43,955 nt of DNA from Pseudomonadota bacterium (GCA_015486505.1 WFRP01000313.1:1-43955); one strand, 5' to 3'; counted from the first letter of the stretch, positions 1 to 43,955 are shown. Numbers and translations are program-made. The notes: generated by a model not told the origin, from the sequence alone.

Positions 1-337
1 CAGTTGAAAAAAGCTGTCGAAAAAAAACAAGAAAATAACCTGTAAGGTACTAATGCGGGAACAGATCCCGCAACCCAAACGGAGCCTTGCGGCCCGCACC
101 CAAGGGCACTTCCGATGGTCGCAAATAAGTGCTCTTATCAGAACATTTTCTTGTTTTAAAACAAGAAAATAACCTGTAAGGTACTAATGCGGGAACAGAT
201 CCCGCAACCCAAACAGGGCTTTTTCGGCCCGCACCCAGGGGCACTTCCGATGGTCGCAAATAAGTACTCTTATCAGAACATTTTCTGATTATTAAATCTT
301 GTTTTTTGGTGCAGAAAATAACCTGTAAGGTACTAAT
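1..337 (-). repeat. H-M modular repeat array A, truncated by the window edge. Read on +: partial H (loop L3), M(long), H(L2), M(long), H(L1). Two full units.
   Basis: Direct reading. GAAAATAACCTGTAAGGTAC-TAAT-GCGGGAACAGATCCCGC-AACCCAAAC...CGCAAATAA-GTRCTCTTATCAGAACATTTTC occurs twice (54-150 and 189-285). The array ends with an H arm plus TAAT at 314-337. Strand given is that of the better-folding (F) orientation. Confidence 0.9.
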
Positions 338-495
338 GGTGCTCTGGTTTCTGGTGGTTGCCGGTCTGGGCTTGGTGATCTCGTTCAAAAATGGTATATT
401 TTTCTAGTCGTATTTTTTGACTATTCAGCCGTATTGTTATTCCTGGTCCAAACAGTTTCGAACAGTTTCGGGGTCAGGTCAGGATTCGGGGTTTC

Positions 496-523
496 GGGGT
501 TAGGCTTGACTTATGGGTATTTG
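496..523 (+). repeat. S motif copy 1 (GGGGTTAGGCTTGACTTATGGGTATTTG)
   Basis: Near-identical to 3052-3079 (+) and to the reverse complement of 38807-38834. Confidence 0.7.
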
Positions 524-545
524 AAAAGGGTTAGCGATTAGCGTT

Positions 546-1292
546 CTAGATATGGCGATGGGGTTGTTTGCCGGAGCGGTGGGCGTGTTCGTGGTGGTGG
601 ATGTATAACTCTTCATCAACCAGAATCTTGCCGTTTTCCATAGTGTAGATATGCGCGGTGGTTTCGGTTAAAAAGTCAAATTCGTGGGAAACCACCAGGT
701 ATGAAAGCTCGGTGAAATTATTGAGCATCTCGACAAGTTTATGTTTGGTTTTATGGTCAAGCCCGGCCGTCGGTTCATCAAGGAGCAGGACTTTGGGCTC
801 CATAGCCAGGACCGTAGCCAGGGCGACCAGGCGTTTTTCGCCGCCGGAGAGCTTGAATGTTATCCGCTTAGCAAAATCGCTGAGGTTTAAGCGTTCCAAT
901 ACCTGATATGATATTTCCAGAGCTTCGCTTTTGTTTTTACCGAGATTCAGCGGCCCGAAAGCGACATCTTCAATTACCGTGGGGAAGAAAAGCTGGTCGT
1001 CGGCATTTTGAAAAAGGAGACCGACCTGTCGGCGTAAGATCTTGAAATCAGCTTCTTCAGTAACGGTTTTGCCGTTAAAAACGATCCGCCCGGCGGTTGG
1101 CCGCAAAAGGCCGACAATCAGGTGAAACATAGTGCTTTTGCCGCTGCCGTTCGGGGCGGCAATGCCGATGTGATCCCTTTCCCGGAGACTGAAATTAAGT
1201 TCATCAAGGATTGGCGGCCCCTCAGGATAATGAAATGAGAGATCTTCCAGTGACAGAATGGTGGATGGATGCTGACGGCAGTCGGAGGGCAT
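546..1292 (-). CDS. cbiO: ECF-type Ni/Co transporter ATPase component (CbiO/NikO)
   Basis: Walker A GIAAPNGSGKST, ABC signature LSGGEKRL and Walker B LLLDEPTAGLD. ATG start with AGGAA upstream. Last gene of the K-M-L-Q-O cluster. Confidence 0.92.
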   Translation of the reverse strand: MPSDCRQHPSTILSLEDLSFHYPEGPPILDELNFSLRERDHIGIAAPNGSGKSTMFHLIVGLLRPTAGRIVFNGKTVTEEADFKILRRQVGLLFQNADDQLFFPTVIEDVAFGPLNLGKNKSEALEISYQVLERLNLSDFAKRITFKLSGGEKRLVALATVLAMEPKVLLLDEPTAGLDHKTKHKLVEMLNNFTELSYLVVSHEFDFLTETTAHIYTMENGKILVDEELYIHHHEHAHRSGKQPHRHI

Positions 1293-1313
1293 ATTTTTAT
1301 AATTCCTGAAAAA

Positions 1314-2087
1314 TCAGAGGATTGCCGGAAAAACGACAATTCGCAACTCGCTGAGCGCGAGAATGGTTGAGAAAATCAAGATAAAGCTCAGGAAAAAGTA
1401 GTCCTGAGCGCGGTCGTGATACTCGGTCAAACTGTGAAAACGGCCGTCAAAGCCGCGGCAGAGCATAGCTTTATGGACGCGCTGGGCGCGCTCGGCCGAA
1501 CGGACAAAGAGCATTCCCAGCAGATTGGCATAAGTCTTATAGCAATGGAGCGAAGTATTCGGCTGAAAATTGCGGATTTTGGCCGCTCTTAACATAGTCT
1601 GGAGTTCATCTTCAATCAGAAAAATATAGCGGTAGGTAATCAGCAGCAGTAAAACCAGTTTGGCCGGCAGTTTCAAACTGTGCAGAGCGTGGGCGAGATC
1701 GGCGGTGCTCATAGTCGAGATCAGGGCAAGAAAGATCAGCAGCATAGCCGAGGTTTTCAGCGTCAGCAGCAGGGCCAGGGTAATGCCGGTCCGGCCGATT
1801 TCAAGAAAAGAGTTCTGCCAGATGACCGGCCCGCCGCAGGTAAGCGGCAGCACCAGCCAGATAAGCAGGAGAAACCCGGCGATGACCAGAAGCCGGCGGC
1901 CGGCTTTGAAAAGATTGATCCGGGCCGCGATAATCAGGATGAATGACAGCGCCAGCGCCAGGAGCAGGGGCGGGATCGTCTGACACAATGCTACGACAAA
2001 GGCCAGAAAAATAGCCGCCAGAGTCCTGGTTCTGGGCGACAGTTTATGAATCGGGGATTCCCCGCGGCAGAAATTTTCCTGAAGCAT
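1314..2087 (-). CDS. cbiQ: ECF transporter transmembrane (T) component, CbiQ/NikQ
   Basis: Polytopic hydrophobic protein with the C-terminal Arg-rich CbiQ-like segment (RSAERAQRVHKAMLCRGF). It sits between the M-type and O-type components. ATG at 2087. Confidence 0.88.
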   Translation of the reverse strand: MLQENFCRGESPIHKLSPRTRTLAAIFLAFVVALCQTIPPLLLALALSFILIIAARINLFKAGRRLLVIAGFLLLIWLVLPLTCGGPVIWQNSFLEIGRTGITLALLLTLKTSAMLLIFLALISTMSTADLAHALHSLKLPAKLVLLLLITYRYIFLIEDELQTMLRAAKIRNFQPNTSLHCYKTYANLLGMLFVRSAERAQRVHKAMLCRGFDGRFHSLTEYHDRAQDYFFLSFILIFSTILALSELRIVVFPAIL

Positions 2088-2092
2088 ATTTC

Positions 2093-2352
2093 TAATGCGG
2101 GAACTAACTCCCGCAACCCAAACAGGGCTTTGTGCCCCGCAAATAAGTACTCTTATCAGAACATTTTCTTGTTTTTACAGTTGAAAAAAGCTGTCGAAAA
2201 AAACAAGAAAATAACCTGTAAGGTACTAATGCGGGAACTATCCCGCAACCCAAAAGAAAGTTTTCGGCCCGCAAATAAGTACTCTTATCAGAACATTTTC
2301 TGGATATTAAATCTTGTTTTTTGGTACAGAAAATAACCTGTAAGGTACTAAA
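2093..2352 (-). repeat. H-M repeat array B. Two full units with short M modules and loops L3 and L1. It fills the whole spacer between the nikL-like gene and cbiQ.
   Basis: Read on +: TAAT-GCGGGAACTAACTCCCGC...CGCAAATAA-H(L3)-TAAT-GCGGGAACTATCCCGC...CGCAAATAA-H(L1)-TAAA. The stop codon of the upstream gene (2348-2350) lies inside the terminal H arm junction. Confidence 0.9.
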
Positions 2353-3025
2353 GGTTCTGCTTGCTGACTGAAGGTTGTTTACGGCTCCTGATGTAAGCGA
2401 TAATTCCGACCAGTCCGAGAATATAACCCAGGCCCCCTAACACATCTTTTAAGCCGGGGTCGGGGTTGCGGATTTCCGCCAGCATCTGCAGCAGCGGGTG
2501 CAATTTTTCAGTCAGGGATTTATTTACCACTTTCCGGACAATTCTTTCGAGCTCTTCCGGGCTGATATTGAGATTGGCCGTGGCCTTGCCGGCAGTCCCC
2601 GGTGTTACGGTGGGAGCGGATCGTGCCGCCGGGGTCGCTGCGGCTTTTGGTTTGGCGGTGGAGGCGGCCGTCGCTGAGTCAACCGGTTTGCCGATTGCGG
2701 TTAATTCACTTTTTTTAACCTCCCATTTACCGAGGTGGCCGGTTCCGGCATAGACAACAATCTTCAAATCGTCAATCTTCGGCACCGGAAAAGAAAAATT
2801 CCCCTGAGCGTCGGTTTTACCTTTAAGCAGCAGTTGTTTTTGACTGTCAAAAACTTCAACCCGGCTCGCCCTGGCAACCTTGCCGCCGCTGAATTTAGCG
2901 GAAGTATAAATGGTATTGCCTTCGACCCAGGCAAAAACATTTACCCGGTGGGCCCAGGCCGGGGCCGCCGAGAACCCCCCCCCGCCTATGAAGAAAACTA
3001 CAAATATAATAAAGTGTTTACGCAT
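2348..3025 (-). CDS. Secreted, membrane-anchored accessory component of the Ni/Co ECF transporter (NikL-like)
   Basis: Signal peptide MRKHFIIFVVFFIGGGGFSAAPAWA, then a beta-rich domain, an Ala/Pro/Thr linker and a C-terminal TM helix. The ATG at 3025 has GGAG 7 nt upstream, so the TTG at 3037 used by the ORF track is probably an over-extension. Position between cbiM and cbiQ. Confidence 0.7.
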   Translation of the reverse strand: MRKHFIIFVVFFIGGGGFSAAPAWAHRVNVFAWVEGNTIYTSAKFSGGKVARASRVEVFDSQKQLLLKGKTDAQGNFSFPVPKIDDLKIVVYAGTGHLGKWEVKKSELTAIGKPVDSATAASTAKPKAAATPAARSAPTVTPGTAGKATANLNISPEELERIVRKVVNKSLTEKLHPLLQMLAEIRNPDPGLKDVLGGLGYILGLVGIIAYIRSRKQPSVSKQNL

Positions 3026-3051
3026 AATAATCTCCAAAATGAAATGAAAAT

Positions 3052-3079
3052 GGGGTCAGGCTTGACTTATGGGTATTTG
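3052..3079 (+). repeat. S motif copy 2 (GGGGTCAGGCTTGACTTATGGGTATTTG)
   Basis: Same 27-28 nt as 496-523 and the reverse complement of 38807-38834. Lies in the spacer between cbiM and the nikL-like gene. Confidence 0.7.
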
Positions 3080-3109
3080 CCGGAAGCCTGCCGCCCGGAA
3101 AAATCCAAA

Positions 3110-3703: not shown

Positions 3704-3720
3704 TATTTTTTATCTCTTTA

Positions 3721-3819
3721 GGGTACCTCGAAAAATTGTCTTTTTGTCCAATTACTGCGCTGGTTAAAAATTTTAACCGCCTTGTACTTAAACAGAAATC
3801 CTGATTTTTCAAGACACCC
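3721..3819. mobile_element. U-family MITE-like element, short variant (U3), flanked by a perfect TTTA/TTTA duplication
   Basis: Termini are GGGTACCTCGAAAAAT...GATTTTTCAAGACACCC (imperfect TIR). The 5' half aligns with U1/U2 (…AAAAATTGYCTTTTTGYCCAATWACTGCG…). TTTA at 3717-3720 and 3820-3823. Confidence 0.7.
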
Positions 3820-3858
3820 TTTAAACAAAGGTTATATGATGTTGAGATTTCCTGAGAA

Positions 3859-4647: not shown

Positions 4648-4703
4648 TTTGGTCCTCCGGAACTTTGGTTAAGTTGATTGTCTGATTCTCAATCGTTGAG
4701 GCC

Positions 4704-4756: not shown

Positions 4757-4811
4757 GTAATTGCCGGACCTGCAGGGCCGGAGTAATATGAAAAAATATG
4801 GTATTGCTCAA

Positions 4812-4952
4812 GGGAACCTCTAAAAATTGCTCTTTTGCCCAATAACTGCGTTAGTCTCAAATTTTAATCCTCAAAATACTCAATGTATTCATCCGGTTAA
4901 AATCTTCGACTGCCTTGTTCTTGAACAAAATTTCTAATTTTTAGAGGAACCC
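4812..4952. mobile_element. U-family MITE-like element (U1), 141 bp, flanked by a TCAA/TCAA duplication. Inserted in the Ni/Co operon leader.
   Basis: About 93% identical by eye to the reverse complement of 13740-13879. TIR is GGGAACCTCTAAAAATT / AATTTTTAGAGGAACCC. TCAA at 4808-4811 and 4953-4956. Confidence 0.8.
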
Positions 4953-5020
4953 TCAAACGTTGATCGGTGCAAGTAGAATTGTTACTTGCCGGAACACACT
5001 TCTTGCGTGTCGGTGGGTTG

Positions 5021-5277: not shown

Positions 5278-8085
5278 ATGAAGAAAATCAGTATAATAAA
5301 ACACATTAAATTGTGGGTGATTGTTTTTTTATTGGTGGTTGGTGCGAGTATGATTGCCCTGGATCTGACGATAACCCATAACGGTTTTCAGAGTCAGGTT
5401 GAACAATATCGCAAGCAGTATATTGATCAGCAGAAGCAGATGATTAAACAGGAGGTTGATCAGGTCGTCGCAATGATCAGGTGGAAAAAAGACCGGGCTG
5501 AGGCACTGGTCAAAGCTGAAATTAAATCCCGGGTTGAAGAAGCCTGCGCGGTGTGCAGCCATATCTACCAGCTGAACAAAAACCGAAAAAGCCCGGCTGA
5601 GATCCGGGAGATGATCATCGAGGCCTTGCGGCCGATCCGTTTTGCACAGGGCCGCGGCTACTATTTTATTACTCGTTTGGATGGCATTGAGATGCTTTTT
5701 GCCGATAAACCGGAATTTGAAGGGCGGAATTTGCTGAATATGCAGGATACGCAAGGTAAGTATGTAATTAAAGATATGATTAAATTAGTGCGGCAGTCCG
5801 GTGCGGGTTTTTATGAATATCACTGGACCAAACCCCGGGCGGCCGGCAAAGATTATAAAAAAATAGCTTTTGTTAAACGTTTTGCCCCCTTGAACTGGTT
5901 TATTGGAACCGGCTTGTATGTTGATGATGTTGAGAGGCAAATTAAAAACGATTTACTCACAGATATAAGCCGGATTCGTTTTGGCCGGGAAGGCTATGTT
6001 TTTGTTGACCGGTTAAATGGTGATGTTCTGGTAGCAAACGGCAGGCGTTTTGACGGAACCCGGAAACTGTGGCAGGTTTTCAAGGGAAAACCGGTAAAAA
6101 TCAAAGCGGTTTTTGCGAAAGAGCGCCGGGCGGCCTTGAAAGACGGTGGTGATTACATCTATTATACCTGGGGCAAATTGAGTGATCCTGATCGGGAAGC
6201 AGCCAAAGCCTCTTTCGTTTACGGCATTCCTGAACTGCAATGGCTGGTCGGGGCCGGGGTCTATCTTGATGATGTGGAGATGGCGATTGCACAGATGCAT
6301 TTCCGATTACAAAATCAGCTTAAAATAAAAATACTCATTTTTATTCTCTGTCTGTTGGCAATGATAGCTCTTTTCCTTCTCCTTTTCAACCATTTGCACC
6401 GGCAGTTGAAAAACGATTTCCGGCTCTTTAACCTGTTTTTTGATCGGGCGGCGCACTCCGATGAACCGATTAATCAGGACTTGATCCGATTTAGTGAATT
6501 CGACCGGCTGGCGGAACACGCAAATAAAATGCTCTTCGATAAAACGCTTGCCCGGCAGAAGCTTTTTGCCGAGCAACAGGCGTTGCGCGAAAGCGAACAA
6601 AAATTCCGGGAGATGGCAAATTTGCTGCCCCAGGTGGTTTATGAGGCGGATGCCCGGGGGAACATTAGTTTTATTAACCGTCAGTCCCTGGAAATGTTTG
6701 GCTATTCTGAAGCTGATGCCGATGAAAGGCTTAGTTTTTTCACTATGCTTGTACCGGAAGACCGCAGTCGGGCAGAAGAAAATATCGAAGCGGTTTTGGC
6801 CGGTAAGACCCCAGGGAACAACGAATATACCGCGTTAAGAAAAGATGGCTCCGTATTCCCGGTAATGGCTTACTCGACTCCGGTTTATCATGATGGTAAA
6901 CTTGATGGTTTTAGAGGTATCATTGTCGATATTTCCGAGCGCAAACGAATGGAAGAGGAGTTACTTAAGGTTCGCAAGCTTGAATCAGTCGGGGTTCTGG
7001 CCGGCGGCATAGCCCATGATTTCAACAATATATTGACGGCAATTTTAGGAAATATTTCTCTCGCCCTGATAAATACCGATCCTGAAAATGAAAATCATGC
7101 TTTGCTATTGGAATCGGAAAAAGCCTCCTTGCGGGCTCAGGAACTGACTCAGCAACTGTTAACCTTCGCCAAGGGCGGGGAACCGGTCAAGAAAATTGCG
7201 GCAATTGACGAGGTTATCAAAGATTCCGCCGGCTTTGTTCTCCGGGGGAGCAATGTCAGATGTGATTTTCAGTTTAGTGAAGATCTCTGGCCGGTCGTCC
7301 TTGATGCGGGGCAGATTAGTCAGGTCATTCAAAATATTATTATCAATGCGGCTCAGGCCATGCCGGGCGGCGGTCGGATTGTGATATTCTGCACGAACTG
7401 TAATCTGAATTTGAATTCCGTCGTTCCCGTAAGCCCGGGCAATTATATAAAAATTATCATCAAAGATCAGGGGATCGGTATTCCTGCAGATATGCTTGAT
7501 AAAATATTTGATCCTTATTTTACAACCAAACAACAAGGCAGCGGTTTAGGCCTGGCGATAACCCATTCCATCATCAAAAAACATAAGGGCTACCTTGCGG
7601 TGGATTCCCGTCTGGGGCAAGGCACGACTTTTACAATCTATCTTCCCGCAGCCCAAAACAAAACCGGGTCTGAAACCCGGGATGTTATTGCGGCACCGCT
7701 GCCCTGTTCGGGCCGGATAATGATTATGGATGATGAAGAGACGATCCGGGCTCTGCTTAGCAGGACCCTCTCACGGGCTGGTTATGAAGTGGTGGCGGTT
7801 AATGATGGAGAACAAGCCGTTTTACTCTATAAAAAAGCGTTGGCGGCAGAGCAGTCAATTGATCTTGTCATTATGGATCTGACGATTCCGGGTGGTATGG
7901 GCGGTAAAGATGCTGTCCGAGAGATCCTTAAAATTAATCCGGAGGCCAAAGTTGCGGTTTCCAGCGGTTATTCCAATGATCCGGTAATAGCCAATTTCAG
8001 TGAATACGGTTTTTGTGGTGCGCTGGGAAAACCATTTAAGGTTTCAAGGGTGCTGGAATTTGTGGCCCAAGTTCTTAACGGCTGA
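5278..8085 (+). CDS. Hybrid sensor histidine kinase (TM, double Cache-like periplasmic region, PAS, HisKA, HATPase, REC)
   Basis: H-box AHDFNNILTAILG and a G-box region (GSGLGLAITHSII). C-terminal receiver IMIMDDEE...MDLTIPGGMGG. Two Cache-like repeats (YYFITRLDG…, GYVFVDRLNG…). Confidence 0.92.
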   Translation: MKKISIIKHIKLWVIVFLLVVGASMIALDLTITHNGFQSQVEQYRKQYIDQQKQMIKQEVDQVVAMIRWKKDRAEALVKAEIKSRVEEACAVCSHIYQLNKNRKSPAEIREMIIEALRPIRFAQGRGYYFITRLDGIEMLFADKPEFEGRNLLNMQDTQGKYVIKDMIKLVRQSGAGFYEYHWTKPRAAGKDYKKIAFVKRFAPLNWFIGTGLYVDDVERQIKNDLLTDISRIRFGREGYVFVDRLNGDVLVANGRRFDGTRKLWQVFKGKPVKIKAVFAKERRAALKDGGDYIYYTWGKLSDPDREAAKASFVYGIPELQWLVGAGVYLDDVEMAIAQMHFRLQNQLKIKILIFILCLLAMIALFLLLFNHLHRQLKNDFRLFNLFFDRAAHSDEPINQDLIRFSEFDRLAEHANKMLFDKTLARQKLFAEQQALRESEQKFREMANLLPQVVYEADARGNISFINRQSLEMFGYSEADADERLSFFTMLVPEDRSRAEENIEAVLAGKTPGNNEYTALRKDGSVFPVMAYSTPVYHDGKLDGFRGIIVDISERKRMEEELLKVRKLESVGVLAGGIAHDFNNILTAILGNISLALINTDPENENHALLLESEKASLRAQELTQQLLTFAKGGEPVKKIAAIDEVIKDSAGFVLRGSNVRCDFQFSEDLWPVVLDAGQISQVIQNIIINAAQAMPGGGRIVIFCTNCNLNLNSVVPVSPGNYIKIIIKDQGIGIPADMLDKIFDPYFTTKQQGSGLGLAITHSIIKKHKGYLAVDSRLGQGTTFTIYLPAAQNKTGSETRDVIAAPLPCSGRIMIMDDEETIRALLSRTLSRAGYEVVAVNDGEQAVLLYKKALAAEQSIDLVIMDLTIPGGMGGKDAVREILKINPEAKVAVSSGYSNDPVIANFSEYGFCGALGKPFKVSRVLEFVAQVLNG

Positions 8086-8153
8086 GCACCGCATTCATAC
8101 CGTACATTATTCAGTTAAATAGCAGTATTTTCAGGTAAAAGGGGACGTGAATT

Positions 8154-10205
8154 ATGAAAATACAAAGAATCAGCTTTCGAATTTTACTTCCGGCATTTAT
8201 AATAACTATAGTATTTTCCATCGTTCTCTATTATGTCGCGAGCTCTAAACTCACCGGCATTATCGAGCAAAATCTCAGCCAAAACACCAATGACAAAATT
8301 GCGGATATTGCCGTCAGCGAAAAACGTATCGCCAACGCCATGCTGGCTCAGGCCGCGCTCTTCAGTCAGGCTCAAGCAATTCAAAATGCGTATCTTACAG
8401 CCTACAAAGGGGATATCCACAACGAAAAAGACCCCGAGATGGAGAAAGCCCGTAAACAGCTTAGAGACTACTTTGATTCGATTGAAAAAGGTTACATGAA
8501 GACCAGTCAGGGGAAGCATTTTCGCATACATTTCCACCTGCCCCCGGCCCGCAGTCTTTTGCGCTTATGGAAAACCAAACAACATAAAAGTGATGATTTA
8601 AGCTCTTTCCGTAATACCGTTAAAACTATCAGCCAGGGTGAGCACACACCGCTGGCCGGGATTGAAATCGGCCGGGGCGGTTTTGCCATTCGCGGGCTGG
8701 CCCCGGTAATCACCGATTCCGGCCGTTATCTGGGTTCGGTCGAGGTGCTTTCCTCGTATGATCCCCTGGTTAAATACGGCATCTCCAATAAACATGAATA
8801 TATAGCCGTGTATATGAAAAAAGAGTTTCTGCCGATTGCAACCCGGCTGCATGATCGCAGCAAACATCCGTTGGTTGGTGAAAATTTCGTCTATGTTTCC
8901 TCAACCGATAAGGTTGTCACCGATAAACTTATAAGTCCGCAAATCCTTGCTTCCGGCAGCCAGAATATCAATATGCGGCGCATCGGTGATTTTTTTACCG
9001 CGGTTTTCCCGGTCAAAGATTTCAGCGGCAAAGTGATCGGGGTCATGGCTTATGGCTACGATGCGGCTAATGTCTACTCAACTATCACCAAAGCTAAAAT
9101 CAGCATCCTGATGATATGCTTAGCCCTTATTTTATGTATTTTAATCCCGCTGTTACTGACCGTACGTTCAGTCACTAAACCCATCAACCTGACCACCGAG
9201 ATGGTTAAAGATATTGCCGAAGGCAATGGCGATCTGACCAAGCGACTGACCATCTTCAAACAGGATGAAATCGGTGAAATGTCCGGTTATTTCAATCTCT
9301 TTCTTGATAAACTTCAGTCCTTGATCCGCCAGATTAAAGATAATTCCAATGGCATCAATTCGGCATCGAACGAATTTCAGGAGGTTGCGGACCGGATGTT
9401 CAAAAGTGCTCAAGAGAGCTCGGAACGCGCGCATACGGTCGCGACCGCGGCCCAGGAGATGAGCAGCAATCTGCATGGTGTTGCCGCCGCGATGGAAGAG
9501 TCAAGTACGAATACAAATCTGGTGGCAGCCGCAACCGCAGAGATGTCTTCAACTATAAATAATTTATCCGACAATGCCCAAAAAACTCAGACTATATCCA
9601 ACTCCGCGGTTGAAAAAGCCCAAGCCGTATCCCGCCAGATGGCCGGGCTGGGTGAAGCTGCGGTCGGTATTGGTGAAGTCCTGGCAACGATTACCAAAAT
9701 TTCCGGACAGGTAAACCTGCTCGCCCTGAACGCAACCATTGAAGCCGCCCGCGCCGGGGAGGCCGGTAAAGGTTTCGCGGTGGTCGCCGGTGAAATTAAA
9801 ACTTTGGCGAATCAGACCGCTGAAGCCGCTTCCGAGATTCGGACTAAAGTTGAAGCGATTCAGAAAAGTTCCAGCGAAAACATTGCCGGCATCGAGGATA
9901 TCTCAAATATTATTGCCGAGATTAATGAGTTGATCGATTTGGTTACGGACGCCGCCGGAGAACAATCCCAGGCCACCGCGGAGATCACCGGCAGTATTAC
10001 TCAGGTTTCCCGGGGTATTCTGGAAGTTAATGAAAATGTTAATCAAAGTTCTTCAGTCGCGGAAGGGATTACTCGTGACATCGCCGGCGTGGACAACTCG
10101 GCACAAAGCGTGAGAAATAACAGTGATCAACTGAAAATTAACGCTGAGAACTTAAGCAGAACGGCGGCTCGGCTTGGCGCTGTAGTCGGCGAATTCAAAA
10201 TATAA
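8154..10205 (+). CDS. Methyl-accepting chemotaxis protein with a Cache-type sensor and HAMP
   Basis: Conserved MCP signalling hairpin [32 protein letters not shown]-terminal TM, a Cache-like region and a second TM. Confidence 0.93.
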
Positions 10206-10207: not shown

Positions 10208-10718
10208 GTAACTATTCAGCCAAATTTTACCCCCCCCCACCTTCTGGAGGGGGCGGGGGTGGTTTTTCGTAAGTGGTTGCGGAAACGATTTCGTTGTTTT
10301 TCGGAAGCGAGCGGGAGCCCATTAGTACCTTACAGGTTATTTTCTGCACCAAAAAACAAGATTTAATAATCAGAAAATGTTCTGATAAGAGTACTTATTT
10401 GCGGGTCGCAAGGCCCCGTTTGGGTTGCGGGATCTGTTCCCGCATTAGTGCCTTACAGGTTATTTTCTGTACCAAAAAACAAGATTTAACAGTCAGAAAA
10501 TGTTCTGATAAGAGTACTTATTTGCGACCATCGGATTGCCCCTGGGTGCGGGCTGAAAAGCCCTGTTTGGGTTGCGGGAGCTGTTCCCGCATCGGCATTG
10601 CAACTGTTTGAGCGTAGCGAGTTTTGCAAGGCGGGCGCAGCGAGCGTAAGGAAAAACAGAAATCTTAACGCCTGGCGGAGAAAAACCGCGCCCGACCCCG
10701 GATTCGGCTGAATAGTTA
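10208..10718 (+). mobile_element. T-family TIR element, long composite form (T1), carrying H-M array C internally
   Basis: Perfect 14-bp termini GTAACTATTCAGCC (10208-10221) and GGCTGAATAGTTAC (10705-10718). Left and right parts are collinear with the short copy at 16190-16367. The extra 325 bp (10314-10638) is bracketed by AGCGAGCG at 10306-10313 and 10639-10646. No clear TSD. Confidence 0.75.
10321..10594 (+). repeat. H-M repeat array C. Unit 1 is 10321-10443 (short M) and unit 2 is 10444-10590 (long M). Both have loop L1.
   Basis: ATTAGTACCTTACAGGTTATTTTC...GAAAATGTTCTGATAAGAGTACTTATTTGCG...GGGTTGCGGGAKCTGTTCCCGC occurs twice. The array ends in ATCG. Confidence 0.9.
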
Positions 10719-10807
10719 CTAAATAATTTTCAAAAAAAATCATTAAAGACATAAAAACAACCACTTATAACAATTCAGAAAAACTTTCTCACCCGGGAAC
10801 ACAAGCT

Positions 10808-11785
10808 ATGACCAATGAGTTTGCTGCTTTTGAACAGTGTCAAAACCCGGCGGTCCGTCTCGACCGGCGCCGACAGGATCTGCACAAGGTTGTCAATCAA
10901 CTGACCAAAACCTGCCTCAGCGGGGAGTGCTTTGAGCATCTTGCCCCGCAGCCGATCCCGTTGCGGGACAATACGATTGCCATTGTCAAACAGGCGCGCA
11001 AGCTGCTTTTCCCCGGTTATTTCACCCAGACGCGGATAGACCCGGTCAATCTCAAATACTATCTCGGCCAGGAGCTTTCCGAACTCCATGAGATGCTCGG
11101 CAATCAGATTATTCTGGCGATCCGCCATGACTGTCTGCGCTACAATGACAGCTGTGTCAACTGCGAAGAGCGCGGCCTCGACGCGGCCTCGGATTTTGTC
11201 AAAAGACTCCCGGAACTCCGGCGGATTCTGGCAACCGATGTCAATGCCGCGATGGAAGGCGACCCGGCCGCGAAAAGTGTTGATCAGGTAATTTTCAGCT
11301 ACCCCGGCCTTTTTGCCATCTCGATCTATCGCATGGCTCACGTTTTACATCATTTGCAAGTTCCCCTGCTGCCGCGGATGATGACTGAATACGCCCATAA
11401 CCTGACCGGAATCGACATCAATCCCGGCGCTCATATCTCTGAAAGTTTTTTCATTGACCACGGTACCGGCATCGTCATCGGCGAAACCACAAAAATCGGC
11501 AAAGGGGCGCGCATCTATCAGGGAGTTACTCTAGGCGCGCTGTCACTGCCGCGGGATGCCGGCGAGAGCCTGCGCCACACCAAACGCCATCCGACAATTG
11601 AGGATGACGTTATTATCTATGCCGGAGCTACGATTCTCGGCGGTAAAACCACAATCGGCGCCCGTTCGGTTATCGGCGGCAATGTCTGGCTTACCGCCTC
11701 GGTGCCGCCCGACACCAGGGTTCTGCAGAAAAGCCAACCGCCGCTTTATTGTGAAGACGGCGTCTGTGTCCCCCAAAACCAATAG
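10808..11785 (+). CDS. cysE: Serine O-acetyltransferase (long-N-terminus form)
   Basis: GDPAAKS, YPGLFAISIYRMAH, hexapeptide region IDINPGAHI...IDHGTGIVIGETTKIG, and KRHPTIEDDVIIYAGATILGG. Confidence 0.9.
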   Translation: MTNEFAAFEQCQNPAVRLDRRRQDLHKVVNQLTKTCLSGECFEHLAPQPIPLRDNTIAIVKQARKLLFPGYFTQTRIDPVNLKYYLGQELSELHEMLGNQIILAIRHDCLRYNDSCVNCEERGLDAASDFVKRLPELRRILATDVNAAMEGDPAAKSVDQVIFSYPGLFAISIYRMAHVLHHLQVPLLPRMMTEYAHNLTGIDINPGAHISESFFIDHGTGIVIGETTKIGKGARIYQGVTLGALSLPRDAGESLRHTKRHPTIEDDVIIYAGATILGGKTTIGARSVIGGNVWLTASVPPDTRVLQKSQPPLYCEDGVCVPQNQ

Positions 11786-11787
11786 TC

Positions 11788-12049
11788 TGATGCGGGAACA
11801 AGCCCCGCAACCCAATCGGGCATTTTCGGCCCGTACCCAGGGGCACTTCCTCTGATCGCAAATAAGTACTCTTATCAGAACATTTTCTGATTATTAAATC
11901 TTGTTTTTTGGTGCAGAAAATAACCTGTAAGGTACTGATGCGGGAATAATCCCCGCAACCCAATCGGGCCTTTTCGGCCCGCAAATAAGTGCTCTTATCA
12001 GAACATTTTCTTGTTTTTTCAAACCGAAAATAACCTGTAAGGTACTAAT
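11788..12049 (-). repeat. H-M repeat array D. Two units. Read on +: M(long)-H(L1)-M(short)-H(L4).
   Basis: It begins 2 nt after the cysE stop codon. Both unit junctions carry TGAT instead of TAAT, and both M modules carry the AACCCAATCGGG variant. Confidence 0.9.
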
Positions 12050-13425: not shown

Positions 13426-13740
13426 ATGCCGACAAAAAATTTACCTGAAGATATCGAGCGCGATTTTACCGCGGCGGCGGCCCTGCACCAGCGCGCCGTA
13501 GCGGATTACACAAAATGCCTGGAATTTAACAAAACCCTGGCCCGGCTCCTGGATAAACTGGAAGATTGCGATCAGCTTAAACTGGCGAACAAGGTAATGG
13601 GCATCCTGATTGACTGCAGTCCCAAAGAAGGCGGTCACTGCGATCAAGCCACGCAGATCGACAATAAAATCAATTCCTTGACAAAAACCTGGAGGAAAGA
13701 AAAAAATAAAGAGACCGGATCAATAATCCGGCCTCTTTAG
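13426..13740 (+). CDS. Hypothetical small protein (104 aa)
   Basis: Open frame with an ATG but no convincing SD and no recognised motifs. Its 3' end runs into the U2 flank. Confidence 0.35.
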   Translation: MPTKNLPEDIERDFTAAAALHQRAVADYTKCLEFNKTLARLLDKLEDCDQLKLANKVMGILIDCSPKEGGHCDQATQIDNKINSLTKTWRKEKNKETGSIIRPL

Positions 13741-13879
13741 GGTTCCTTTAAAAATAGAAATTTTGTTCAAGAACAAGGTTGTCGAGGATTTTAACCGGAG
13801 GAATACATTGAGTATTTTGAGGATTAAAATTTGAGACTAACGCAGTTATTGGGCAAGAGAGCAATTTTTCGAGGTTCCC
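13740..13879. mobile_element. U-family MITE-like element (U2), 140 bp
   Basis: Reverse-complement copy of U1 (4812-4952). Flanks are TTTA (13736-13739) and TTAA (13880-13883), a 3/4 match. Confidence 0.8.
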
Positions 13880-16189: not shown

Positions 16190-16367
16190 GTAACTATTCA
16201 GCCGAATCCGGGGTCGGGCGCGGTTCTTCTCCGCCAGGCGTTAAGATTTCTGTTTTTCCTTACGCTCGCTGGGAAAAACAACGAAATCGTTTCCGCAACC
16301 GCTTACGAAAAAACCACCCCCGCCCCCTCCAGAAGGTGGGGGGGGTAAAATTTGGCTGAATAGTTAC
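16190..16367 (-). mobile_element. T-family MITE (T2), 178 bp, with perfect 14-bp TIRs and a perfect 8-bp target-site duplication. Inserted between dctP and dctQ.
   Basis: GTAACTATTCAGCC (16190-16203) and GGCTGAATAGTTAC (16354-16367). AAAAATGG occurs at 16182-16189 and 16368-16375. Collinear with the two ends of T1, in inverse orientation. Confidence 0.88.
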
Positions 16368-20907: not shown

Positions 20908-21381
20908 TTCTGCACAAAAAAACAAGATTTAATAATCAGAAAATGTTCTGACAAGAGTACTTAGTCAACTTTATGACTTGATGTAAGTGGTAGTTTTTAC
21001 AGGTTTTGTTGTGTTTTTTTGCAAATGATTTCATCTTGTTACTCTTTGCGCCTTTGCGTCTTTGCGGGATAACTTCTTTTTGTCTCCCGCCAAGACGCAA
21101 AGACGCAAAGAAAAACCGCGGGCAAATGATTTTATCAATAAATATCAGTTGTTTAACCTAACTCAGAAAGTTGAGGTACTTATTTGCGACCATCGGAAGT
21201 ACCCTTGGGTGCGGGCCGAAAAGGCGCGATCGGGTTACGCAATTTGTTCCCGCATTAGTACCTTACAGGTTATTTTCTGCACAAAAAAACAAGATTTAAT
21301 ATCCAGAAAATGTTCTGATAAGAGTACTTATTTGCGGGCCGCAAGGCTTCGTTTGGGTTGCGGGATTTGTTCCCGCATTAG
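20905..21381 (+). repeat. H-M repeat array E. Two units; the first is decayed (5' H arm deleted, 3' hairpin degenerate) and interrupted by MITE-V. It fills the ntrY-ntrX spacer.
   Basis: TTTAG-TTCTGCAC… lacks 16 nt of the canonical ATTAGTACCTTACAGGTTATTTTCTGCAC. The unit resumes at 21176 (GTACTTATTTGCGACCATCGG…). A second, intact unit spans 21244-21376. The array ends in ATTAG, 10 nt before the ntrX ATG. Confidence 0.88.
20965..21174. mobile_element. MITE-V, a 210-bp TIR element nested inside an H-M unit
   Basis: Termini are TCAACTTTATGACTT… and …AACTCAGAAAGTTGA (8 nt perfect, about 13/15 overall). GTACTTA is duplicated at 20957-20963 and 21176-21182. It carries the REP-V palindrome at 21045-21110. 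Confidence 0.75.
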
Positions 21382-21391
21382 GTAAAAAATT

Positions 21392-30433: not shown

Positions 30434-30572
30434 TAATGCGGGAACAATCCCCGCAACCTAATCGGGCCTTTTCGGCCCGCACCCAAGGGCACTTCCGTTG
30501 GGCGCAAATAAGTACTCTTATCAGAACATTTTCTTGTTTTTTCAAACCGAAAATAACCTGTAAGGTACTAAC
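30434..30572 (-). repeat. H-M repeat locus F, a single unit (long M, loop L4) between glcD and glcF
   Basis: TAAT-GCGGGAACAATCCCCGC-AACCTAATCGGGCCTTTTCGGCC-CGCACCCAAGGGCACTTCCGTTGGG-CGCAAATAA-H(L4)-TAAC. It ends 16 nt before the glcF ATG. Confidence 0.9.
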
Positions 30573-34967: not shown

Positions 34968-35337
34968 ATTAGTACCTTACAGGTTATTTTCTGCACAAAA
35001 AAACAAGATTTAATATCCAGAAAATGTTCTGATAAGAGTACTTATTTGCGGGCCGCAAGGCTTCGTTTGGGTTGCGGGACTTGTTCCCGCATTAGTACCT
35101 TACAGGTTATTTCTTGTTCAAAAAAACAAGAAATGTTCTGATAAGAGTACTTATTTGCGGGCCGAAAAGGCTCGATTGGGTTGCGGGGATTGTTCCCGCA
35201 TTAGTACCTTACAGGTTATTTTCTTGTTTTTTTCGACAGCTTTTTTCAACTGTAAAAACAAGAAAATGTTCTGATAAGAGTACTTATTTGCGGGCCGCAA
35301 GGCCCTGTTTGGGTTGCGGGATCCGTTTCCGCATTAG
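34968..35337 (+). repeat. H-M repeat array G. Three complete units (34968-35090, 35091-35199, 35200-35332) plus a terminal ATTAG. Loops are L1, L5 and L3.
   Basis: Cleanest array in the window. It lies between convergent genes, starting 10 nt after the kinase stop and ending 3 nt before the waaA stop. Confidence 0.93.
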
Positions 35338-38806: not shown

Positions 38807-38834
38807 CATATCCCCATAAGTCAAGCCTGACCCC
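38807..38834 (-). repeat. S motif copy 3
   Basis: The reverse complement reads GGGGTCAGGCTTGACTTATGGGGATATG. It lies 28 nt upstream of the DUF456 gene. Confidence 0.7.
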
Positions 38835-38861
38835 GTTTGGTTCATTGGTCATTGGTGGTGA

Positions 38862-39368
38862 ATGGAAATTGCAATTTTGACAACTCTCTGTCTGTTCGGC
38901 ATAATCGGCACGCTGGTGCCGGTTATGCCGGGTTGCGGCCTGATTTTTATCGGGGCTTTCGCTTACGCCCTGCTGACAAATTTTCAGATTATTTCCGGCC
39001 CGGAAGTCCTGGTCCTGCTCGGTTTGATGCTGGCCGGCTCAATCGGCCAGTTTTTCATCACCAGCCTCGGGGCCCGGGTTATGGGGGCGGGGAAATATGG
39101 GGTTGTCGGGGCTTTCTGCGGATTTTTTTTCGGCCTGATCTTTATTCCGGCTCCGGGCGGCTCTCTGATCGGTGCCTTTGCCGGGGCCTTCATCTGTGAG
39201 CTGACCTTTGCCGTTAAAAGTCAGCGGGAAAGCGTCAAGGCCGGAATCGGCGCGGTTATCGGCGCAATCTTCAGCCTCTTTTTTGAGTTTTTCATCGGCA
39301 TAATTATGATCGCCTACACCCTGTCAATCATCTGGCACAACCCAATCCCGCCGACTATCATTCTCTAA
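38862..39368 (+). CDS. Small integral membrane protein (DUF456-like)
   Basis: 168 aa with four Gly/Ala-rich TM segments. GGTGGTG lies upstream of the ATG. The stop codon TAA (39366-39368) is the TAAT junction of repeat locus H. Confidence 0.75.
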   Translation: MEIAILTTLCLFGIIGTLVPVMPGCGLIFIGAFAYALLTNFQIISGPEVLVLLGLMLAGSIGQFFITSLGARVMGAGKYGVVGAFCGFFFGLIFIPAPGGSLIGAFAGAFICELTFAVKSQRESVKAGIGAVIGAIFSLFFEFFIGIIMIAYTLSIIWHNPIPPTIIL

Positions 39369-39504
39369 TGCGGGAACAGCTCCCGCAACCCAAAAGAAAG
39401 TTTTCGGCCCGCACCCAAGGGCACTTCCGATGGTCGCAAATAAGTACTCTTATCAGAACATTTTCTTGTTTTTTCAAACCGAAAATAACCTGTAAGGTAC
39501 TAAT
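39366..39504 (-). repeat. H-M repeat locus H, a single unit (long M, loop L4)
   Basis: TAAT-GCGGGAACAGCTCCCGC-AACCCAAAAGAAAGTTTTCGGCC-CGCACCCAAGGGCACTTCCGATGGT-CGCAAATAA-H(L4)-TAAT. It shares the AAAAGAAAGTTTTC variant with unit 2 of array B. Confidence 0.9.
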
Positions 39505-39534
39505 AGCAAACAATCGAATGCAAGCAGTTATAAC

Positions 39535-39620
39535 CTCCCGCAAAGACGCAAAGGCGCCAAGAAAACCGAAAACGATCAACGTTACCTGAAACCCTTTGCG
39601 TCTTTGCGTCTTTGCGGGAG
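39535..39620. repeat. REP-V palindrome (arms TCCCGCAAAGACGCAAAG… / …CTTTGCGTCTTTGCGGGAG, about 40-nt loop)
   Basis: The same approximately 26-nt arm occurs as an inverted pair in the opposite arrangement at 21045-21110, inside MITE-V. Confidence 0.75.
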
Positions 39621-39659
39621 ACATTAAGATGAATAGTTAGAAATCTTACAACTTAAGGC

Positions 39660-42600: not shown

Positions 42601-42671
42601 AGCAGAGGCAGAGCCGCAATCAGAATGAAACCCGCCAGAAATTTCCGGTAGAGAGAGCTTTTAAAACTCAC
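39660..42671 (-). CDS. Hybrid sensor histidine kinase (TM, Cache-like, HAMP, 2x PAS, HisKA, HATPase, REC)
   Basis: H-box AHDFNNLLMGMQG, GSGLGLATSYSII, and receiver ILLMDDEEVIR…MDISIPGGMGG. The GTG start overlaps the upstream stop (GTGA). Confidence 0.9.
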   Translation of the reverse strand: MSFKSSLYRKFLAGFILIAALPLLGSSLYFYGVLQSYLYRDVARSSMAEARVAGRQVAWHIGEVRDAVKFTASQYLFTRKNGRLLSWVYRQHHEICKIVVVNTKNRVVESVARYGYLSPGSLSPLSAYTTEFPRKEMVFFSQWRLEPQLVLVYPIFSLKTGKQQGYLYAEINLKTLFNNFPRRATGAHQLSLINMQGEIVAHNEIEYVLQGVRVDHYVPVAKVLKGAESAYAEYRNVAQQAVLGVAVKVKGLPLLVISEMPIAKAYVLAHTLRKTFIYVFSLSLGLILLGSWYLSRSMTRPIASLFQASERIRQGSLEPVTGDFPDDEIGAFAHCFDLMVASLREDRKLREAAEERLRESEQRYRMVADYAYDMECWRNEKGEFIYLSPSCEKVTGYSQQDFYDNYLLMNDIVVAEDREIFVDHRHEVEQDGTFRPIEFRIHHKDGSIRWLNHICRPVTGPDGEAMGARGSNRDITARKLAEEFLQMEQERLAVTLRSIGDGVITTDTDGLITLINPVAENLTGWKSADALGKNISDVFRIINENSRKTMRCPVAQALQENRIIELMSHVLLISHSGEEIIIADSAAPILTQAGQCLGVVLVFRDVRTERKMQQERIRSEKLTAVGLLAGGIAHDFNNLLMGMQGSLDLIKISCGENREKTEAYLARADRAIERAVALAQQLLTFAKGGAPIKDRAKLPALVKESAEFVLHGSQIKVEYEIEEDIWGVEIDSGQISQVVNNLITNARQAMLDAGIIRVTIKNILAAVDEYPNLKPGYYVKVSVQDDGGGIDPAILPRIFEPYFTSKETGSGLGLATSYSIIANHEGRIEVDSQPGIGATFSFFLPATGKCEKEPVHNLEMPRKSLENAVQSESSRILLMDDEEVIRDVVSEMLEMLGYEVVAVEDGVAMLEAYKAAQQAGQKFHAVLMDISIPGGMGGREAIKHLRNLDAEVFAIVSSGYSQDPVMANFEAYGFNAMVSKPYKVDSLVAVLGDRLSKECGYKL

Positions 42672-43693
42672 CGTAAAACCTCATCCGCCTGCAGCAGAAT
42701 ATCTTCACTGACCTCAAGATCAAGTTTCCGGGCCTCTTTTAATGAAACTGTCAATTTGACCTTTTCCGGATTCTGCACCGCGATATCACCCGGAGAAACT
42801 CCTTTTAAAATCTGCTCAACCTCCCGCGCCGCCTGCACCCCGACCGCGAAAAAATCGGGACTGTAGCCCATTACCCCGCCCCGCTGCAGCAGGACATTGT
42901 CTATCACCATAAACGGGATTCGCAAACGATGGGATAATTGCAGAAAGTCTTTGAATGAAGCCACTGAAAGGGCATCCGGCAGCATAAAAACCGAATCTAT
43001 CTCCTTAATCGTCAACCCCTGACAGACTTTCCGCAATTCCGGCAGACTATGCACGCGATTAACCACCAGAGTCACCCCGATATCTTCAGCCACCTGATGA
43101 ATATGATGCTGTTCAAATGAACTTTTTGAAATTTCTTCATCAGGGTTGTAAAATACCGCTATCCGTTTAATTTCGGGAAAGGCTTTTTTTAACAAGAGCA
43201 GACGCTGCGGCAGAAGCTCTTTTGAAACATGGCTGATCCCGGTAATATTCGCACCGGGATGACGCAGGTCGGCAACCACATGAGAGCCGACCGGATCGGC
43301 AACCACAGTAAAAACGACGGGGATATCAATATGCTCTCCGGCGACCCCGGCTTTGACGGCCTGAGTTACGGGAGTGGTTACGGTATAGATAAGATCATAT
43401 TTGTCCGCGGCAAATTTTCTGACTAACGGCGCCACCCTGCCGACATCACCGGCAACCGAGTGAACGTCAAAAACAATCTCTTTATCAAGCTTCCAGTCTG
43501 CGTTCTGCAGACCGGACCGCAGCCCTTCGTAAGATTCAAGAAACGGTTCGGCATAAGCAATAACGCCGATATGCCTGACTCGTATATCCTGGTCGGCAAC
43601 GGCGCAAGCCAGTCCCGGCGCCAACAGGAATAAATAAATCAGCCCTGACAATCCCGGCCAGAATCCATAACGGAGAAATGAACTCATCAGCAT
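42668..43693 (-). CDS. Periplasmic substrate-binding protein (ABC-type, PF04392/BMP-like), translationally coupled to the kinase
   Basis: Signal peptide …LLAPGLACA and an alternating alpha/beta periplasmic-binding fold pattern. AGGAG lies 4 nt upstream of the ATG. There are no permease or ATPase genes adjacent. Confidence 0.7.
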   Translation of the reverse strand: MLMSSFLRYGFWPGLSGLIYLFLLAPGLACAVADQDIRVRHIGVIAYAEPFLESYEGLRSGLQNADWKLDKEIVFDVHSVAGDVGRVAPLVRKFAADKYDLIYTVTTPVTQAVKAGVAGEHIDIPVVFTVVADPVGSHVVADLRHPGANITGISHVSKELLPQRLLLLKKAFPEIKRIAVFYNPDEEISKSSFEQHHIHQVAEDIGVTLVVNRVHSLPELRKVCQGLTIKEIDSVFMLPDALSVASFKDFLQLSHRLRIPFMVIDNVLLQRGGVMGYSPDFFAVGVQAAREVEQILKGVSPGDIAVQNPEKVKLTVSLKEARKLDLEVSEDILLQADEVLR

Positions 43694-43782
43694 AATCTCC
43701 TGTGCCCACCTTTACTCCTTGTAAAAACTCACCCGGCATTCTTAGCAGTCATCCCCTGATTTTGCAAGCATGAAAAAAATCG

Positions 43783-43894
43783 GTAACTATTCAGCCAAAA
43801 TTTCCCCCCCCCACCTTCTGGAGGGGGCGGGGGTGGTTTTTCGTAAGCGGTTGCGGAAACGATTTCGTTGTTTTTCGGAAGCGAGCGGGAGCCC
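43783..43894 (+). mobile_element. T-family element, left part (T3), continuing into an H-M array and the window end
   Basis: GTAACTATTCAGCCAAAATTTCCCCCCCCCACCTTCTGGAGGGGGCGGGGGTGG…GAAGCGAGCGGGAGCCC is nearly identical to 10208-10320. Confidence 0.8.
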
Positions 43895-43955
43895 ATTAGT
43901 ACCTTACAGGTTATTTTCGGTTTGAAAAAACAAGAAAATGTTCTGATAAGAGTAC
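43895..43955 (+). repeat. H-M repeat locus I (an H hairpin with loop L4, truncated by the window end)
   Basis: ATTAGTACCTTACAGGTTATTTTC-GGTTTGAAAAAACAA-GAAAATGTTCTGATAAGAGTAC. Confidence 0.9.

Follow-up and report, generated by a model that had tools for sequence, protein, structure and literature searches.

Results and Discussion

A 43,955-nt metagenomic contig assigned to a Pseudomonadota bacterium (GCA_015486505.1, WFRP01000313.1:1-43955; the entire contig is referred to here as the window) carries a family of intergenic repeats that is genuine, abundant and, apparently, undescribed. Each repeat, which we call an H-M unit, joins a 57-80-nt AT-rich hairpin (H) to a module (M) of one to three small GC hairpins on the 3' side of H, and both ends of the contig stop inside an H. 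Comparison with related loci gives evidence of present or recent mobility, and we lean towards the view that the unit is a miniature non-autonomous mobile element, mobilised in trans by an enzyme (transposase or recombinase) whose gene lies elsewhere in the genome. The family represents a dense miniature-element load, with 4.7% of the DNA devoted to it in 44 kb, and its anatomy is unusual—unlike ends, TTA joints, stop-preserving insertions and mixed arrays.

A hairpin repeat family at nine loci

The 20-nt left arm GTACCTTACAGGTTATTTTC occurs 16 times in the window with up to two mismatches (7 on the plus and 9 on the minus strand), compared with 0 occurrences in 100 dinucleotide-preserving shuffles, and the 22-nt right arm is likewise found 16 times at the same tolerance. 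A repeat finder recovered the family at 9/9 of the loci named in an original prediction made from this DNA alone. We also trained a covariance model on 15 copies, of which 13 come from other organisms and two from the window; searched with filters off, it returned 15 matches of 42-128 bits (E ≤ 4e-7), all within the nine loci and none elsewhere in the window, with scores of at most 27 bits on the opposite strand. Parsing of the copies yielded 14 complete H-M units (105-145 nt) and a complete H cut by the window end, together with three partial copies: at 1-50, a unit truncated by the window start; at 20908-20960, a remnant of H; and at 21176-21253, an M module with only the GTAC of H before it. 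Altogether the family covers 2,075 nt, i.e., 36% of the 5,719 non-coding nucleotides, and lies in 9 of the 24 intergenic spacers; within the locus 20905-21381, some 210 nt are unrelated sequence, including a separate 67-nt palindrome.

These results bear out the original prediction in part. The nine loci and the consensus are present in the sequence as it had given them, its estimate of about 15 full units and 17 H hairpins is matched by the 14 complete units plus partial copies, and its split of four loci on the plus and five on the minus strand is correct, as are the orientations of the individual covariance-model matches. The apical loops, expected at 14-38 nt, measure 14, 15, 28 or 38 nt, and the optional 25-nt insert was found in seven M modules. 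The estimate of about 2.1 kb, or some 5% of the window, also holds; the statements that this is most of the non-coding DNA, and that the family sits in most intergenic spacers, were overstated. Of the three outcomes that the prediction had named as telling against it, none was observed: no curated family was found to match, the copies are no assembly artefact, and the family also occurs outside the window.

Anatomy of the H-M unit

The unit can be laid out as W-TTA/GTRCC...(H)...GTRC TTATTTGCG...(M)...TCCCGC-A/TTA-R, with slashes marking its two limits. Its left end begins GTRCCTTACAGG (GTRCCTTAC...), which forms the base of the long imperfect hairpin H, and its right end is the nearly invariant small GC hairpin GGGTTGCGGGA-N5-TCCCGCA. 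The H stem is an imperfect 19-bp helix with two bulged A residues, one T.T mismatch and two G.T pairs, capped by one of four recurrent apices: a 28-nt loop (L1), a 14-nt palindromic extension (L2), a 38-nt loop with an inner hairpin (L3) or a 15-nt loop (L4). Within M, each hairpin is preceded by TT(G)GGT(T)GCGGG; the first small hairpin has 5-6 bp and a GCAA, GAAA(A), GTGA or GTAA loop, and the optional 25-nt segment is itself an imperfect hairpin, the stem sequence of which varies among copies (AAAGG/CCTTT in locus L032). Units within an array run head-to-tail in a single orientation, with ATTA as the sole joint.

Pairing in the H stem is well preserved. Across 19 pairs and 23 distinct arm pairs, 97.7% of cells are paired, as opposed to 36-57% in slid controls, and four pairs have changed on both sides; pair 3-44, for instance, is AU ten times and GC ten times, with G.U intermediates. 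Compensatory combinations include CAGGTTAT/ATGTTCTG versus CAGGACAT/ATGTCCTG and versus CAAATTAT/ATAATTTG. On the sequence comparison, this shows that the complementarity of the arms is maintained—a pattern that would equally fit RNA, single-stranded DNA or a pair of protein-bound terminal inverted repeats (TIRs). The first small hairpin of M shows one-sided changes only, and the right hairpin is almost invariant, partly because the search pattern fixed its sequence.

The original description of a modular, hairpin-rich, intergenic repeat stands, except that its division into separate modules fits less well than a single asymmetric unit with two unlike ends, as which H-M is better described. 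Loci L045 and L049 retain both ends (GTRCCTTAC... and the right hairpin) around unrelated interiors, and minimal versions also occur: L038 consists of H and one hairpin of different sequence followed by ATTA, and L019 of H and a single GC hairpin. Among approximately 50 complete H copies from the window and from the loci recovered from GTDB and JGI, essentially all are followed by at least one GC hairpin, and the TTATTTGCG junction is always accompanied, in the window and in related loci, by at least the tail of H.

Junctions and stop codons

A common boundary pattern links the window with 13 loci from GTDB metagenome-assembled genomes (MAGs) and 38 JGI contigs. The outer left junction carries TTA in 50/51 cases, with T (30) or A (18) at position -4. 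At the outer right junction, A follows CCCGC in 60/62 cases, then TTA in 47/62 and then G in 43/62, all three figures being inflated by the search pattern used to find the loci. The resulting flank logo differs between left and right. One unit (11792-11935) has TCA on both sides, as expected from duplication of a variant target.

A substantial share of these junctions coincides with the end of a gene. On the left, 15 of 52 junctions supply a stop codon, TTA/G creating the TAG that ends a long upstream open reading frame (ORF). On the right, 7 of 55 junctions carry a TTA whose reverse complement is the TAA stop of an opposite-strand ORF; about a fifth of the outer junctions thus fall exactly on the stop codon of a flanking gene. 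Three such junctions lie in the window: at 2348-2350, at 20905-20907—where the TAG stop of an NtrY-like gene precedes the H remnant, itself followed by TTAG—and at 39366-39368, where the right-hand TTA of unit 39370-39500 corresponds, as reverse complement, to the TAA that ends a DUF456 gene (38862-39368). A T/TAR target includes stop codons, and the first G of the element restores the stop. In a lineage with 15-40-nt spacers, stop codons are probably where insertions are tolerated, either by mechanism or by selection.

Evidence for mobility

The nearest relative recovered, locus L020, shares with the window a GlcD 89% identical, ~80% DNA identity and a gene order kept over 16 kb. Its NtrY-NtrX spacer measures 24 nt versus 484 nt in the window and its GlcD-CCG spacer 15 nt versus 284 nt; by this comparison, the arrays at these two sites in the window are lineage-specific gains. 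Loci L022 and L024 likewise have short, repeat-free spacers wherever gene junctions are comparable. The L020 contig ends in ...ATTAG just past its histidine kinase gene, where the window has the array 34968-35337, and this site may be occupied in both.

Sequence similarity among copies points the same way. Between copies in the window, identity reaches 100% over 85 nt, whereas ordinary spacers do not align between these relatives; the H arms are identical, or differ by one nucleotide, in MAGs with a GlcD only 74% identical. Neighbouring units in an array belong to different subtypes—L1-L2-L3 at 34968-35337 and 1-337, L1-L3 at 2093-2352 and L4-L1 at 11788-12049—which argues against local tandem duplication and is better explained by repeated insertion at one place. 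Conserved ends around a free interior, as in L045 and L049, fit mobility too, and small elements are nested inside H in loci L041, L027, L032 and L052. The fetched loci yielded no polymorphic pair of filled and empty sites; at the arrays compared, the assemblies of this organism are identical to one another, and the copy of a second element, E2 (described below), that hosts the array 10321-10594 differs from its compact counterpart beyond the array itself and is not a clean empty site. The comparisons of spacers, copies and arrays thus speak for present or recent mobility of the family.

Distribution and host lineage

Two other assemblies (ENA ERZ23495071 scaffold_1464 and NCBI GCA_027006645.1 JALTFU010000587.1) are 99.97-99.99% identical to the window through two arrays, those at 20905-21381 and 30434-30572. 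An exact 18-mer scan of GTDB species representatives gave at least 17 loci, 13 of them family-bearing by profile search; the family is present in at least eight species-level MAGs labelled Thermodesulfobacteriota, "Deltaproteobacteria", "bacterium" or Pseudomonadota. Loci L004 and L016 hold left-arm remnants preceded by TTA, and the bare 18-mer in Bacteroidales and Methylococcaceae MAGs has unrelated flanks, chance matches by appearance. In JGI metagenomes, a search with the right-end pattern added 38 contigs, drawn from about 11 data sets.

The window's GlcD shares 76% identity with a protein labelled Candidatus Tharpella sp. This lineage, a clade that branches deeply within Desulfobacterota, comes from vent sediments at Auka and Guaymas, and the paper describing it makes no mention of repeats (PMC9213671). 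By this protein likeness, the host appears to be a deep-branching, Desulfobacterota/Tharpellota-like, uncultured sediment bacterium. Known families offered no counterpart: across the whole window no Rfam match reached the gathering score, in line with the expectation of a unit foreign to Rfam, and a permissive Rfam scan of one array gave only miRNA-type hairpins of at most 22 bits against thresholds of 55-245. In the literature, we found no match to the family's sequences and nothing on repeats in the clade. A phage or plasmid origin was considered and rejected, with 0 exact matches in IMG/VR to either end of the unit and no blastn match to the family in plasmids and phages.

Contigs frequently break within the repeat. 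Besides the window itself, L001/L002 start, and L066, L003, L018, L030, L036, L043 and L056 end, inside a copy; two short-read contigs of the same organism start at 12044, inside the H of unit 11940-12045, and the contig of another assembly stops at 30536, inside unit 30438-30568. The frequency with which contigs of this clade end in the repeat makes the family a major cause of MAG assembly fragmentation, and a model of it could guide scaffolding and MAG quality control.

Proposed mechanism and alternative explanations

The boundaries, arrays and stop-codon junctions suggest the following route for a non-autonomous element mobilised in trans. An enzyme would recognise the two unlike ends of the unit and insert it in one orientation at (W)TTA/R, with the TTA either duplicated or lying just 5' of the insertion point. 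Each insertion would leave a fresh TTA at the right end, and later insertions there would build heterogeneous arrays with ATTA joints. Stop codons of the form T+TAA or T+TAG match this target and, with the first base G rebuilding TAG, insertions into them would be harmless and retained. Any influence on mRNA (stable 3' hairpins, for example) would be incidental. Within this reading, a strand-specific enzyme (HUH/Y1 of the IS200/IS605 type or of the RAYT type, the REP-associated tyrosine transposases, or else a site-specific recombinase) is slightly favoured over a DDE transposase acting on symmetric TIRs because the ends are unlike, the flanks asymmetric and hairpins present. At least two other TIR-bearing miniature elements occur in the lineage, nested with the H-M family, which indicates that the lineage is permissive for such elements. 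The identity of the enzyme would show whether this is a DDE-driven MITE (a miniature transposable element with inverted repeats) or a strand-specific system.

Several observations weigh against this reading. Pfam scans found no transposase, integrase, reverse transcriptase or Cas domain in the sizeable ORFs of the window—as had been anticipated from the sequence—and no transposase in the ORFs beside atypical copies, and all-vs-all clustering of 980 ORFs from 58 related loci revealed no recurrent transposase neighbour. Among ~400 kb of fetched loci, no autonomous insertion sequence (IS) with the family's ends was detected and no pair of left and right ends encloses gene-sized DNA; where the ends lie more than 200 nt apart, only nested small inserts separate them. 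The unit falls outside the classical MITE definition, its two ends not being inverted repeats, and also outside the IS200/IS605 pattern, the hairpins at those ends being dissimilar. At the junctions, the right TTA drops to 13/16 in the subset unbiased by the search pattern, below the 50/51 on the left; unit 10448-10590 has TTA on its left and TCG on its right; and the TTA is so nearly invariant that it could be the element's own sequence. Its duplication is not proven because orthologous spacers cannot be aligned and there is no base-resolution empty site. Room for an RNA-level role is left by G.U pairs, which are the commonest state at two H positions and always paired on the consensus strand, by the first small hairpin, whose GNRA-like loops are followed by GTTTGGGTT with a weakly terminator-like score, and by a mild orientation bias among co-directional gene pairs (19 sense vs 9 antisense).

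A bolder interpretation, which we hold to be unlikely, is that H-M is the miniature form of an undescribed transposon type with unlike hairpin ends, whose strand-specific enzyme (HUH-like or other) would home to T/TAR, rebuild the stop codon with the element's own first base and re-target the element's own right-end TTA. Such a transposon would thereby saturate the very short spacers of a compact genome and build heterogeneous head-to-tail arrays.

It is similarly doubtful that H alone is a classical MITE—with ~20-nt imperfect TIRs, a 3-bp TTA duplication and a DDE transposase—and M a separate REP-like family (repetitive extragenic palindromic sequences), H homing to the TTA beside M and the composite then spreading. 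Such an origin would account for the bracketing of H itself as TTA/GTAC...GTAC/TTA in every copy, for a stem that reaches one A-T pair into the TTA flanks, and for arms that covary as the TIRs of one protein would. It is also consistent with the H remnant at 20908-20963, which lacks M and has TTAG after it, and with the right-end hairpin found without H in L026 and L036. Against this, H is essentially always followed by a GC hairpin, and the TTATTTGCG junction invariably retains at least the tail of H; solitary insertions in unique DNA are always whole H-M units, the flank preferences are asymmetric, unlike a symmetric TIR/DDE target, and no IS with H-arm TIRs was found in the fetched loci.

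Less probable again is a host-selected structural or regulatory role, as opposed to selfish transposition, for units that would spread through recombination or gene conversion and serve either as RNA hairpins (3'-end protection, termination or attenuation, cistron insulation) or as arrays of nucleoid-protein sites. REPs are thought to do such jobs (PMC3733652), many copies adjoin gene ends, and folding on the consensus strand is strong (z = -3.5 to -6.6), which together with the RNA-level signs listed above would suit this explanation. The complementary strand, however, folds almost equally well: minimum free energies (MFEs) for the consensus strand and its complement are -39.2 vs -39.0, -46.4 vs -36.9 and -50.2 vs -47.3 kcal/mol, and the "better-folding strand" of the original prediction is therefore right in direction, with a difference that is small to modest. 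The two common G.U pairs become A.C on the other strand, yet they stem from only two ancestral events, and the signal is weak because transitions at G.U always restore a Watson-Crick pair. With respect to the upstream gene, units are oriented almost at random (28 on the same and 25 on the opposite strand, by rough ORF calls), which argues against an obligatory RNA role. Moreover, orthologous operon junctions in the nearest relatives make do with 15-24-nt spacers and no repeat, arrays of two to three different units have no obvious added function, and recombination alone leaves the invariant TTA boundaries in unique DNA unexplained.

Two observations on H stand beside these. On the complementary strand, its 3' arm (window 264-285, TATCAGAACATTT) resembles the consensus of integration host factor (IHF), WATCAR-N4-TTR, with the last base off. 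A hammerhead ribozyme was considered and rejected: CUGAUAAG in the 3' arm is hammerhead-like without the essential G, and Rfam gave no match.

An assembly artefact—collapsed, chimeric or falsely duplicated repeats in a single metagenome assembly—could explain why the window and several related contigs end inside a repeat, but is effectively refuted by the near-identity of the two other assemblies through two arrays and by the spread of the family over GTDB species and JGI contigs, although unit counts inside individual arrays may yet be wrong through mis-assembly. Scarcely credible, too, is another known type of repeat array (integron attC, CRISPR or a slippage satellite), for while the hairpins are imperfect with bulged bases and arranged in tandem, there are no cassettes or unique spacers but only ATTA, loops recur in four types, the window has no integrase or cas gene and no Rfam CRISPR match, and adjacent units are of different subtypes, as slippage would not be expected to produce.

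Copies in the window and other repeats

The copies of the H-M family in the window are collected in Table 1.

Table 1. Copies of the H-M family in the window, with a nested element from related loci
Feature	Position	Strand	Score or support
Unit cut by contig start: H 5' arm (31-50) and part of a 38-nt L3-type loop	1-50	-	
Complete H-M; 14-nt palindromic loop (L2), long M with 25-nt insert	55-184	-	87.9 bits
Complete H-M; 28-nt loop (L1), long M; outer left flank CCATTA at 334-339	189-333	-	
Complete H-M; 38-nt loop (L3), short M; right flank ATTAG	2097-2226	-	77.4 bits
Complete H-M; L1, short M; TTA/G junction makes the TAG stop of ORF 2348-3037 (-)	2231-2348	-	107.2 bits
Complete H-M; L1, short M; within E2 copy (10208-10719)	10325-10443	+	116.5 bits
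Complete H-M; L1, long M, 5' arm GTGCC; right flank TCG instead of TTA	10448-10590	+	parse and covariance model
Complete H-M; L1, long M; TCA on both flanks	11792-11935	-	parse and covariance model
Complete H-M; 15-nt loop (L4), short M	11940-12045	-	128.4 bits
H remnant: L1 loop and 3' arm, 5' arm lacking 16 nt	20908-20960	+	
Long M module with just the final GTAC of H before it	21176-21253	+	
Complete H-M; L1, short M; ends ATTAG, 11 nt before NtrX-like start codon	21258-21376	+	115.2 bits
Solitary complete H-M; L4, long M; antisense to both flanking genes	30438-30568	-	parse and covariance model
Complete H-M; L1, short M; first of three, 15 nt past histidine kinase stop	34972-35090	+	
Complete H-M; L2, short M	35095-35199	+	122.9 bits
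Complete H-M; L3, short M; 97% identical to 2097-2226	35204-35332	+	
Solitary complete H-M; L4, long M	39370-39500	-	parse and covariance model
Complete H (L4) cut at its last base by contig end; third E2 copy (from 43783) before it	43899-43955	+	57.1 bits
Nested ~65-nt element, locus L041	3015-3085		
Nested ~65-nt element, locus L027	4780-4960	-	
Nested ~65-nt element, locus L032	14490-14560		

Other small repeats share the intergenic DNA with the family. E2, a second miniature element with 14-nt TIRs (GTAACTATTCAGCC / GGCTGAATAGTTAC), occurs in the window as a compact copy between dctQ and dctP (16190-16367), as a copy at 10208-10719 whose interior holds the H-M array 10321-10594 plus extra sequence, and as a third copy (43783-43898) that runs into the H at the contig end; it is also found in L004, L042, L022/L023 and L052, and in L052 one of its ends lies inside an H-M unit. 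A third miniature element of ~140 nt, with 17-nt TIRs (GGGAACCTCTAAAAATT / AATTTTTAGAGGAACCC) and by appearance a classical MITE, is represented by copies at 4812-4952 and 13740-13879 (inverted, 94% identical) and by a partial one at 3721-3751. The ~65-nt element listed last in the table (AAGTGYTTCAC...hairpin...GATGAAGAAACTTAT...) is nested in the H 3' arm, right after GAAAATGTT, in three unrelated contigs.

The 28-nt motif GGGGTCAGGCTTGACTTATGGGTATTTG appears three times in intergenic DNA (~488-520, 3047-3075 and, on the minus strand, 38810-38840). The 67-nt near-perfect palindrome at 21044-21110, which separates the remnant of H from the M module in locus 20905-21381, consists of CTTTGCG heptads (MFE -39.4 kcal/mol) around a GCGGGA...TCCCGC apex that is like the family's right-end hairpin except for its 15-nt loop. 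Cumulative GC skew peaks near 8 kb (window ~6000-10000) and then falls steadily, which could mark a replication-strand change; the peak has no matching switch in repeat orientation, 44 kb being too little to judge.

The family also affects annotation. Five ORFs of 96-112 aa run across arrays—50-388 (-), 2046-2336 (+), 10273-10611 (+), 11691-11984 (-) and 21062-21385 (+)—and translated repeat copies cluster together across loci in the all-vs-all ORF comparison. These ORFs are almost certainly spurious, given unit lengths that differ among copies and are not divisible by three, and masking the family would improve the annotation of the lineage.

Comparison with known systems

The original prediction likened the family to bacterial interspersed mosaic elements (BIMEs) and to REPINs, the doublets formed by REPs, with larger units. 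In a general sense the likeness is apt: as with REPs and BIMEs, the family is intergenic and abundant, with small GC-rich hairpins (here GCGGGA-N5-TCCCGC) and alternative linkers in mosaic arrays, and its arrays are gene-free and often downstream of genes. REPs are 20-40 nt long, and an unpaired GTAG or CGTC tag defines their two super-families (PMC3733652). The right-end module GGGTTGCGGGA-N5-TCCCGCATTA is indeed such a high-copy, 20-40-nt, GC-rich imperfect palindrome. The tag, however, is absent: the flanks are GGGTT/ATTAG (CTAAT/AACCC on the other strand), and H begins GTAC or GTGC. The 105-145-nt unit is, moreover, dominated by an AT-rich 57-80-nt hairpin, and its joints are an invariant ATTA. 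BIMEs, as portrayed in PMC2817692, consist of REPs set at regular intervals, with conserved linkers and with an orientation that alternates, whereas units and GC hairpins of the present family are all direct within an array.

REPINs, according to PMC3116915, are non-autonomous elements with two inverted arms that form a long imperfect hairpin; higher-order tandem clusters are known, some of them arising by insertion beside existing REPINs, and arrays as such are therefore not new. H resembles the REPINs of the REPIN/RAYT system (Pseudomonas fluorescens SBW25 and others) in being an inverted doublet with maintained pairing. Its arms, however, are AT-rich with only a 4-bp internal palindrome (ACCT..AGGT), and are not REP palindromes; separate GC hairpins always follow H, and array neighbours are different subtypes, while REPIN clusters hold near-identical copies. 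Inspection of the window and of the related loci revealed no RAYT (Y1 transposase) gene.

With MITEs such as Correia of Neisseria and Chunjie of Geobacter uraniireducens, the family shares a size within 100-235 nt, hairpin-forming inverted arms and a short specific flank. Correia elements have these same traits of size, arms and flank, as well as variants and harmless insertion. Chunjie, like the H-M family, shows size variants, truncated copies and insertion within operons or at gene ends without gene loss (PMC10969869). The differences lie in the ends, as GTRCCTTACAGG... and ...GCGGGA-N5-TCCCGCA are unrelated and only the H sub-module has inverted arms, and in the asymmetric flanks, the heterogeneous head-to-tail arrays as a rule and a parent IS that is not known. 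Neisseria-type repeats proper (Correia, dRS3/NIME) were considered and rejected, with no DNA uptake sequence of any dialect and with gene content and relatives that are Desulfobacterota-like.

Miniature derivatives of IS200/IS605 have unlike hairpin ends and no TIRs, move by single-strand HUH/Y1 transposition and carry similar subterminal hairpins some bases inside their tips. The H-M unit is comparable in its unlike hairpin ends, its lack of TIRs and its single orientation beside a short AT-rich left target; a right end that resembles the target would also explain head-to-tail arrays. W-TTA abuts the left end in 50/51 cases and the logo is asymmetric, as for a target of this type, yet TTA also follows the right end. 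Furthermore, the left hairpin (H, or the small ACCT-TAC-AGGT) is unrelated to the right GCGGGA..TCCCGC, and H starts at the very first base. On present evidence, the family is not a new kind of biological system and fits none of these definitions cleanly, while sharing the logic of REPs and BIMEs, of REPINs and of MITEs.

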